From a virus, in UHGV virus genome UHGV-1735138: a DNA stretch of 14,855 nucleotides. One strand, written 5' to 3'. Both the position numbers and the translations under genes were made by a program. The notes under the pieces are model-generated. The model was given only the letters and a program-made list of their open reading frames with translations. It was not told where the DNA came from and ran no database searches. Positions 7,393 through 9,561 of this stretch are shown here, one piece after another. Each line of letters opens with the position of its first letter. Positions within the stretch are counted from its first letter, which is position 1.

Positions 7393-8156
7393 ACATCCTC
7401 CCGTTACTTGATAGACCCATAGCCTTCCAGAGAAGTTTTATCCGTCTTGAAATGGGCGTGACTGCCGCATTGTTTCTGTCGCAGTTGACGTACTGGACAA
7501 ACAGAACAACTGACGACGGCTGGGTATATAAAACCCAGGATGAGTGGGAAGAGGAAACAGGGCTTTCACGATACGAGCAGGAGGGCGCGCGCAAAAAACT
7601 ACGTGGTCTCGGCATCTTGCTGGAACGTAAACAGGGCTTGCCTGCCAGGCTGTACTACAAAATCGATAATGATGTGTTGTGCCAGCTACTTACGTCCGCA
7701 TACAAGGATGCGGAAAAACCACATACAGGTGAGGGGAAAACCACCAGGCCTGTACGAGGAAAACCAACAAACATTCTTACAGAGAATACTACAGAGATTA
7801 CTACAGAGATTATTACTGATGGTGGATCGGCTGACGCCGACACCCAACAACCTGCCGACCAGAGAATAAATTATCAGGTGATACTCGATACCTATCACGA
7901 GATTTTGCCAGAGATGCCACCAGTGAAAATCCTCACTGATAGCAGAAAAAAACACCTTCGCTCTTTCTGGAAAAAATTCAATTTCAATGAGTCCCGTTGG
8001 CGGGCCTATCTGGAATTTATCGGTGGTAATTGTCGCTGGATGCTGGAGGACAGGCCGAATGGCAAGGGAGGGTTCTGGCGACGCAAGAATCTTGATTACC
8101 TGATTACCGAACGCTGCTACGTTTCGGTCAAGGAAGAACGCGCAAATGATAAATAA
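7389..8156 (+). CDS. Replication initiation / replisome organizer protein, O-like or P22 gp18-like (255 aa)
   Basis: Position immediately upstream of the DnaB-like helicase; N-terminal winged-helix-like region (GVTAALFLSQLTYWTNRTTDDGWVYKTQDEWEEETGLSRYEQ); contains internal tandem repeats typical of an origin embedded in the initiator gene. Confidence 0.65.
   Translation: MNILPLLDRPIAFQRSFIRLEMGVTAALFLSQLTYWTNRTTDDGWVYKTQDEWEEETGLSRYEQEGARKKLRGLGILLERKQGLPARLYYKIDNDVLCQLLTSAYKDAEKPHTGEGKTTRPVRGKPTNILTENTTEITTEIITDGGSADADTQQPADQRINYQVILDTYHEILPEMPPVKILTDSRKKHLRSFWKKFNFNESRWRAYLEFIGGNCRWMLEDRPNGKGGFWRRKNLDYLITERCYVSVKEERANDK
7779..7814. repeat. Three tandem 12-bp repeats inside the O-like gene (iteron-like candidate origin)
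   Basis: ACAGAGAATACT / ACAGAGATTACT / ACAGAGATTATT in tandem, encoding TENTTEITTEII; an AT-richer stretch follows (about 7865-8000). Confidence 0.4.
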
Positions 8157-9561
8157 CGCGATTGCACTGTACAGCGTTGACGCAGAACAGGCTGTTCTGG
8201 GCTGTCTGATGCTGAATACCGACCACGACAGAACCAATGCGGTATTTGCGTTACTGAAACCGGAAACGTTTTATATCAATGCGCATCAGGTTATCTACCG
8301 GGAGATCAAAGGATTATTTCAAGCTGATAAACCAACTGACCTGATAACACTGACCGAACTGATGGAATCGAAGGGGCTGTATGAGCGCGTGGGGGGATTC
8401 GCATACCTGGCTGAAATGAGTAAGGCGGCGATACCGGCCTCAATGGTCAACTACGCGAAAATTGTACGTGAAAAAGCCATTCTTCGTTATGCCGTGGAAA
8501 AGTTGAATTCTTGTCTGGAGATTATGACCCAGCCTGCAGATATGACTGCTACTGACAGGATCAGCACCGTTCAGCAAGTGATTGGACAGGTAGCTGAACA
8601 TGCCCGTACCGGGCATAAGGGCGGTTTGCGTCCGGCAAGTGAAGTCGTCGATGACTGGATAAATGACCTTGATCGCCGTTTCAATGATCCAGCACATGCA
8701 GCCGGACTAACGCTCGGAATCGAAAGCCTTGATCGCTTAATGGCACCAAAGCAGGCGCTAAGAGGTTCGTTGGTCGTTATTGGTGCCCGGCCAAAAATGG
8801 GCAAGACAGCCGCGTTTAATAAAATTGCGGTGCATTTTGCTCTGAATCATCGTTTGCCGACGCTGGTATTTAGCCTGGAAATGACTGACAGAAGTCTCAT
8901 TGAACGCATGGTTGCGCAGGAAGCAAAGGTCAATTCGGAGATTTTTTATCTTGGCCCTAACGATGAATCTGAATTGAGTCTCGCAATAGCAAAGGCGGGG
9001 GAGATTGCCGAATCCAACATGATGATTGACAGCACGGCAGGCGTAACCCTTGCGCATATTGTCGCTGAATGTCGAAAAGTTAAACGGATGCGTGGCTCGG
9101 TTGGCCTGGTGGCAATTGACTATTTGACGCTGATGAAGACCGAATCGGCAGAGCGTAGGGATATTGCGTATGGCGATATCACAACCGGGCTGAAGAACCT
9201 GGCAAAAGAGCTGGATTGTGTTGTGGTCCTGCTGACGCAACTCAACCGAAAACTTGAAGAACGAGCAGATAAGCGGCCTAACCCGAGCGACAGTAAAGAT
9301 ACCGGGCAGATCGAACAAGATTGCGATGTATGGATTGGCCTCTATCGTGATGCTGTTTATAACGAAAATGCCGACCCACATCTCATGTAAATGTTGCTAC
9401 GTCTGAACCGCGAGGGGCCATCGGGAACAGCCTACGCCCTGATGAAAAATGGCTCAGTTATTGATATCAGCGATGAGGAGGTTTATCGCCTTACCAACGA
9501 CCGCTCAGAAAAAAATAAACGTTATTCCCGTAGCGATAATTCTCGCACAAATGAATTTTAA
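8146..9561 (+). pseudogene. DnaB-family replicative helicase (P22 gp12-like) interrupted by an in-frame TAA at 9388-9390
   Basis: Walker A GARPKMGKTA; the track ORF ends at YRDAVYNENADPHLM; the same frame continues after the stop as MLLRLNREGPSGTA..., which aligns to the conserved DnaB C-terminal IIIGKQRNGPIGTV segment; that frame ends at 9559-9561. Confidence 0.8.

Follow-up and report, generated by a model that had tools for sequence, protein, structure and literature searches.

Among the classical nonsense mutants in replication genes of lambdoid phages are, next to those of lambda, the gene 12 mutants of P22. In lambda itself, nonsense mutations in O or P block the replication of the phage DNA and leave lysogeny intact (PMC6022878). 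The O/P-type replication genes of the defective prophages of E. coli O157 Sakai, including a DnaB-family elongation protein in Sp5, are evaluated in an in-silico survey, and the same paper describes the mobilisation of such prophages with the help of other prophages (PMC2669165). For the cellular helicase DnaB, Lys234 (K234) of the Vibrio cholerae protein is the P-loop lysine and R439 is the arginine finger, which sits on a beta-hairpin and completes the ATP site of the neighbouring subunit; the equivalent residues of Bst DnaB are K216 and R420 (PMC12214026).

In the present study we have analysed a stretch of 14,855 nucleotides (the window), which covers only 14.9 kb of a prophage and in which the frame of a DnaB-like helicase is interrupted by a TAA codon (Table 1). 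We hold with good confidence that this is a recent, lineage-private loss-of-function nonsense mutation, affecting the replicative helicase (DnaB family, SF4) that is encoded by a temperate phage integrated beside a tRNA-Ser gene. The locus is a case of ordinary prophage decay, less likely of a sequencing error, and it is not a new kind of split gene.

Table 1. Position and character of the features of the window (14,855 nt) discussed in the text.
Feature	Position	Strand	Description
tRNA-Ser(CGA)	14..103	+	chromosomal site adjoining the prophage
Integrase	189-1217	-	adjoins tRNA-Ser(CGA)
HTH repressor	5913-6326	-	immunity region
P22-Cro-like gene	6395-6592	+	immunity region
O-like replication initiator	7389..8156	+	phrog_345 'replication initiation O-like', E 3.7e-58; intact, no internal stop
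Truncated helicase ORF	8146..9390	+	414 aa; DnaB N-terminal domain at residues 8-109 and DnaB_C profile 1-220/255
Premature TAA stop, codon 415	9388..9390	+	GAA (Glu) in relatives; G-to-T at 9388
Orphaned helicase 3' end	9391..9561	+	56 codons, same frame as the ORF starting at 8146
PD-T7-5 defence gene	13011-14030	+	339 aa; PADLOC E 1.8e-102, profile 1-340 of 346; no Pfam hit

To judge from its gene content, the element is a temperate phage equipped with an initiator and a helicase of its own. On the minus strand the tRNA is followed by the integrase, DUF4224, Gp157, a large exonuclease and then the HTH repressor, while the plus strand carries the P22-Cro-like gene, YdaT, the O-like initiator (phrog_345), the helicase (phrog_19) and small ORFs, the initiator being the partner gene of the helicase in the replication module. 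The same element is found in E. coli GF43 beside mtfA and tRNA-Ser, as a complete-looking prophage of ~50 kb with an intact helicase and with its head, tail and lysis genes in full; the set comprises antiterminator Q, lysis, terminase, portal, capsid, sheath, tube and baseplate genes. The immunity region of the window (5811-6611) has no DNA similarity to GF43 or to the prophage of SK1144, both of which have a YdaS-type gene, and its flanks are 95-98% identical; the immunity module is a mosaic swap. In the replication operon, a 78-aa ORF (10012-10248, +) shows a weak, sub-threshold match to PF06440 (E 2.7e-4, 21 bits vs a cut-off of 34.6) and might be a phage HOT-like homologue of theta (DNA polymerase III).

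The first-pass annotation had described a helicase frame that ends at 9388-9390, continues for 56 codons and passes through an ATG-TAA-ATG junction, and these observations hold: the ATG at 8146, which overlaps the end of the upstream O-like initiator gene by 11 nt, opens an ORF of 414 codons that ends at this TAA, the frame runs on from the ATG at 9391 to a TAA at 9559-9561, and the junction occupies 9385-9393. The open frame of 56 codons is not a chance product, since the whole stretch of 1416 nt aligns gapless, at 98.3-98.4% identity, to a helicase annotated as one 471-aa CDS both in GF43 and in the ST131-type prophage of SK1144. The sole difference at codon 415 is the GAA (Glu) of SK1144 and GF43 against the TAA of the window, and the alignment to these relatives shows that the ATG at 9391 was already there, as codon Met416, in the uninterrupted gene. 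Both strands were searched around the junction and neither promoter-like nor terminator-like sites were found there; the tRNA-Ser(CGA) is the only tRNA of the window, and other Rfam/RNA families were not found within it. Nothing suggests, therefore, that the T at 9388 creates a new signal.

Relatives were sought at the level of the gene, of the mutated position and of the protein. The stretch of 1416 nt is matched at 95-99% identity by 428 complete E. coli chromosomes. A query of 34 nt, built so that every 28-mer seed spans position 9388, was searched in 5426 complete E. coli genomes; in the form with G at this position it was present in 416 of them and in the form with T in none (0/5426). An exact search with a 29-mer carrying the TAA gave no match in the species-representative genome collection (genome_contigs) or in the metagenome collection (metagenome_contigs), the phage collection yielded no match at megablast level, and the 414-aa product had no record in an exact-protein look-up among about 15 billion proteins. 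One allele, P0121, is a 471-aa protein seen on 461 contigs, which has in common with the window the otherwise unusual His412 and Asn173 and which reads ...HLMEMLLRL..., with Glu415 retained. Closer relatives, sought through the private synonymous SNPs of the window, were not found. Thus the stop appears, across all these collections, to be private to the window sequence. All of the 120 nearest protein clusters have lengths of 455-481 aa, of which the 414-aa product falls short. It follows that the helicase does not naturally end at codon 414 and that the similarity downstream is real, which disposes of the possibility, raised in the first-pass annotation, of a natural end with a spurious tail. 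The comparison of codon 415 among orthologous helicases, which had been proposed at the same time, gives GAA in both aligned relatives and an invariant Glu415, and the reading preferred there, that of a nonsense mutation in a prophage helicase, gains support from this GAA and from the 416 genomes with G vs none with T. The locus has, in short, a premature stop in frame: close orthologues are intact at this codon, and the homology extends past it.

The consequence of the stop for the protein was explored by comparison with protein families and with solved structures. The DnaB N-terminal domain (PF00772) is present at residues 8-109 with E 2.4e-26, covering profile positions 3-103 of 103, and it is followed by a DnaB_C match (Pfam, E 1.8e-59) which extends over positions 1-220 of the 255 of the profile in the 414-aa product vs 1-243, up to residue 430, in the intact relative. 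A RecA-like domain with its P-loop lysine is retained: Walker A lies in GARPKMGKT, and Lys220 (codon 8803-8805) pairs with K234 of V. cholerae DnaB in the alignment with 9dls_A, a chain of 468 aa. In the same alignment R439 pairs with Arg422 (CGC, 9409-9411), which sits 7 residues past the stop codon 415, so that the arginine finger is not on the same polypeptide. The finger was anchored through R439 of V. cholerae and R420 of Bst; a literature match for DnaB R442 was rejected as an unrelated residue of RECQL5. Glu415 is invariant in a first set of 21 orthologues and then in one of 28 that reaches down to 50% identity; the same holds across the 28 for Arg419, Asn421, Arg422, Gly424, Gly427 and Phe471; codons 415-427 thus contain six invariant residues, the arginine finger included. 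Furthermore, Glu415 pairs with Glu435 of E. coli DnaB and LNREGPSGT with GKQRNGPIGT (6bbm, E 7e-75), residues 8-430 of the intact orthologue aligning with solved DnaB structures at E 7e-75 to 1.5e-65.

The orphaned tail encodes a strand-loop-strand bearing the invariant Arg419, Asn421, Arg422, Gly424 and Gly427, together with the C-terminal Phe471. In the AlphaFold model of the intact orthologue P0001 residues 415-420 form a strand, Arg422 lies in a loop, and two further strands and a helix at 443-455 follow; the stop falls at the first residue of the 415-420 strand. This model, with a pLDDT of 70 that is lower around 403-426, was used only as support for the strand assignment. The tail had been said to align with the DnaB C-terminus, and this stands for residues 415-430 (~16 residues), which match the DnaB_C profile and cellular DnaB, and not for the remaining ~40 residues, which are conserved only among phage-type orthologues. 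The 414-aa product is accordingly predicted to retain Walker A/B and to be deprived of the trans-acting catalytic arginine and of the last strands of the RecA-like core, and the conservation and homology of the lost segment indicate that it would be needed for function. Phe471 (codon 9556-9558) is the last residue of the protein, invariant in the 28 phage-type DnaB orthologues and preceded by ~30 residues that vary freely; it may be a candidate site for the docking of a partner protein, the O-like initiator for instance.

We propose the following course of events. With GAA (Glu415) changed to TAA, ribosomes would stop after Met414 and release a protein of 414 aa with the N-terminal domain and Walker A/B, and without the Arg422 hairpin, the rest of the core strands and the C-terminal tail, which is conserved. 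Since the arginine finger of the neighbour completes each ATP site of a DnaB hexamer, a ring of truncated subunits should be ATPase-dead; if folded at all, it would neither hydrolyse ATP nor translocate, and helicase activity would be lost. The element supplies its own initiator and helicase and the loss of the latter should therefore block autonomous replication: after induction the prophage's own O-like initiator and helicase could no longer drive the replication of its DNA, and the prophage is probably incapable of replicating autonomously. The host DnaB or another resident prophage might act as a substitute, in which case the replication defect would possibly be incomplete.

The age of the lesion can be judged from the substitutions around it. 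Against GF43, the block 6611-10793 (4.2 kb) shows 75 mismatches and 0 gaps, with a pN/pS of 0.14 for the helicase and of 0.10 over the eight ORFs of the block, among which the TAA of the helicase is the only internal stop, the seven neighbours being intact. Ten helicase codons differ from both SK1144 and GF43, by seven synonymous changes, two missense changes, both shared with the intact P0121, and the stop itself; two changes private to the window lie past the stop, and both are synonymous. The low pN/pS and the exclusively synonymous private changes after the stop indicate that the gene was kept by selection until very recently. The undecayed tail fits a very recent mutation, and it would fit equally well if the base were an error or the tail still in use.

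Of these alternatives an error of sequencing or assembly, with G as the true base at 9388 and an intact helicase, survives best, and we consider it unlikely. The T at 9388 is unique among all the sequences searched, the tail past the stop is undecayed, the marks of purifying selection extend as far as the stop, and falsely split copies of the same helicase gene do exist in other assemblies, all of which would be expected of an error. Those false splits are, however, 1-bp homopolymer deletions accompanied by many other indels, whereas the change in the window is a substitution outside any length-error context, and the assembly of the window looks clean because there are 0 gaps in the 4.2 kb compared with GF43 and the seven neighbouring ORFs are intact. 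Substitution errors in a finished consensus are, moreover, much rarer than genuine nonsense mutations in prophage genes. The false splits were recognised in other public assemblies (L008, L009 and L010; helicase at ~1630-3043) in which the same helicase is broken into three ORFs by 1-bp homopolymer deletions; in L008 and L009, each 5.5 kb contains 15-17 gap openings and 0-1 mismatches. Such pseudogene look-alikes are artefacts of homopolymer sequencing, and they have been deposited as separate proteins (P0122 and P0127). The two short fragments, which belong to the 90% cluster, were accordingly rejected as independent pseudogenisations, their 1-bp deletions falling in G6, A5, T6 and G5 runs.

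A functional two-piece helicase, in which translation would restart at the abutting AUG and the 56-aa peptide would dock on the 414-aa body and restore the arginine finger, is in our view very improbable. Stop and start abut in UAAAUG, an arrangement that can support termination-reinitiation (translational coupling), and the frame of the tail is intact, with private changes that are only synonymous. Against this, the split is seen in no relative among the 5426 genomes, the contig collections and the 120 nearest clusters: neither the TAA sequence nor a 414-aa relative occurs there, and a natural coupled gene pair would be expected to have its split conserved. The ATG at 9391 is without Shine-Dalgarno pairing (+0.4 kcal/mol), while all nine genuine starts considered (those of the eight ORFs of the block and of cro) pair with the 3' end of the 16S rRNA at -5.4 to -10.0 kcal/mol; it is merely an internal methionine codon of the intact gene. 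Furthermore, the break takes away an invariant Glu with which a core strand begins, and the 56-aa tail, scanned on its own, matches no family. Restart after termination at UAAAUG is mechanistically possible, and we find nothing in its support; the coupled tail peptide entertained in the first-pass annotation is thus weakened by a split that is not conserved, the absence of a ribosome-binding site and a break at an invariant residue. A product of 56 aa is recorded on 6 contigs, and these records are partial calls, at contig edges, of the intact ST131-type allele and not a separate gene, the 6 contigs carrying the SNPs A/A/T vs G/G/C in the window.

Just as improbable is it that the stop is bypassed, whether by low natural readthrough or through an ochre suppressor tRNA of the host, to an extent that yields enough full-length helicase: a little helicase may perhaps suffice per replication event and a suppressor tRNA could reside in the host genome beyond the window, but among the stop codons of E. 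coli UAA is read through the least, the window offers tRNA-Ser(CGA) as its only tRNA and holds no conserved stop with a suppressor tRNA or recoding signal, and the absence of a stop at this codon from all relatives gives no hint of a programmed event.

The nonsense mutation being the preferred reading, and the window product lacking both the arginine finger and the full length, the locus should be annotated as a pseudogene of the helicase, or else marked for resequencing, and not as two genes, and the 56-codon ORF is not to be called a new small protein. The stop, if real, predicts that the prophage is not amplified after induction, which bears on the scoring of prophage inducibility and of the mobility of cargo, including the PD-T7-5-type anti-phage defence gene. 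The split helicase as such opens no new biological question.

The cargo end of the window differs from the relatives in several respects. At 10793-11262 the ORF6N-domain gene of the ST131 relatives (a pseudogene in GF43) is missing, and an unrelated ORF of 85 aa (10941-11198) fills the gap. The PD-T7-5 gene lies within a segment (~12735-14245) that is absent from GF43 and SK1144. A direct repeat of 150 nt (11193-11342 and 14208-14357, 83% identity) flanks an LprI-like gene (11411-12334, -), a 69-aa ORF and the PD-T7-5 gene, and these repeats have the look of borders of an exchangeable cassette of cargo or defence genes. We regard as very improbable, like the two-piece helicase, a truncation that would be kept because it locks in a prophage carrying the PD-T7-5 gene, or because the ATPase-dead subunit would poison the helicases of related superinfecting phages.

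Compared with the systems described above, the element resembles the defective or cryptic prophages of E. coli, such as the defective prophage pool of O157 Sakai (PMC2669165), in that it looks complete while a small lesion in an essential gene may have disabled it; it is set apart by a lesion that consists of one nonsense codon in the helicase itself, encountered so far only in the window sequence. With the O and P amber mutants of lambda (PMC6022878) it shares a nonsense codon in a phage replication gene; unlike the laboratory mutants of lambda and P22, which are usually amber, the allele of the window is natural and ochre (TAA), and its replication block is a predicted one. The intact form of the protein is predicted to be a standard phage DnaB-family helicase, with the same two-domain architecture as the cellular DnaB of E. 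coli (6bbm), V. cholerae (9dls) and Geobacillus stearothermophilus (2r6a/4esv). It differs from cellular DnaB as a phage-encoded paralogue (PHROG 19) with its own C-terminal tail of ~40 residues ending in an invariant Phe, and the copy of the window differs further in being cut before the arginine finger. A prophage disabled by a small lesion is a familiar picture.
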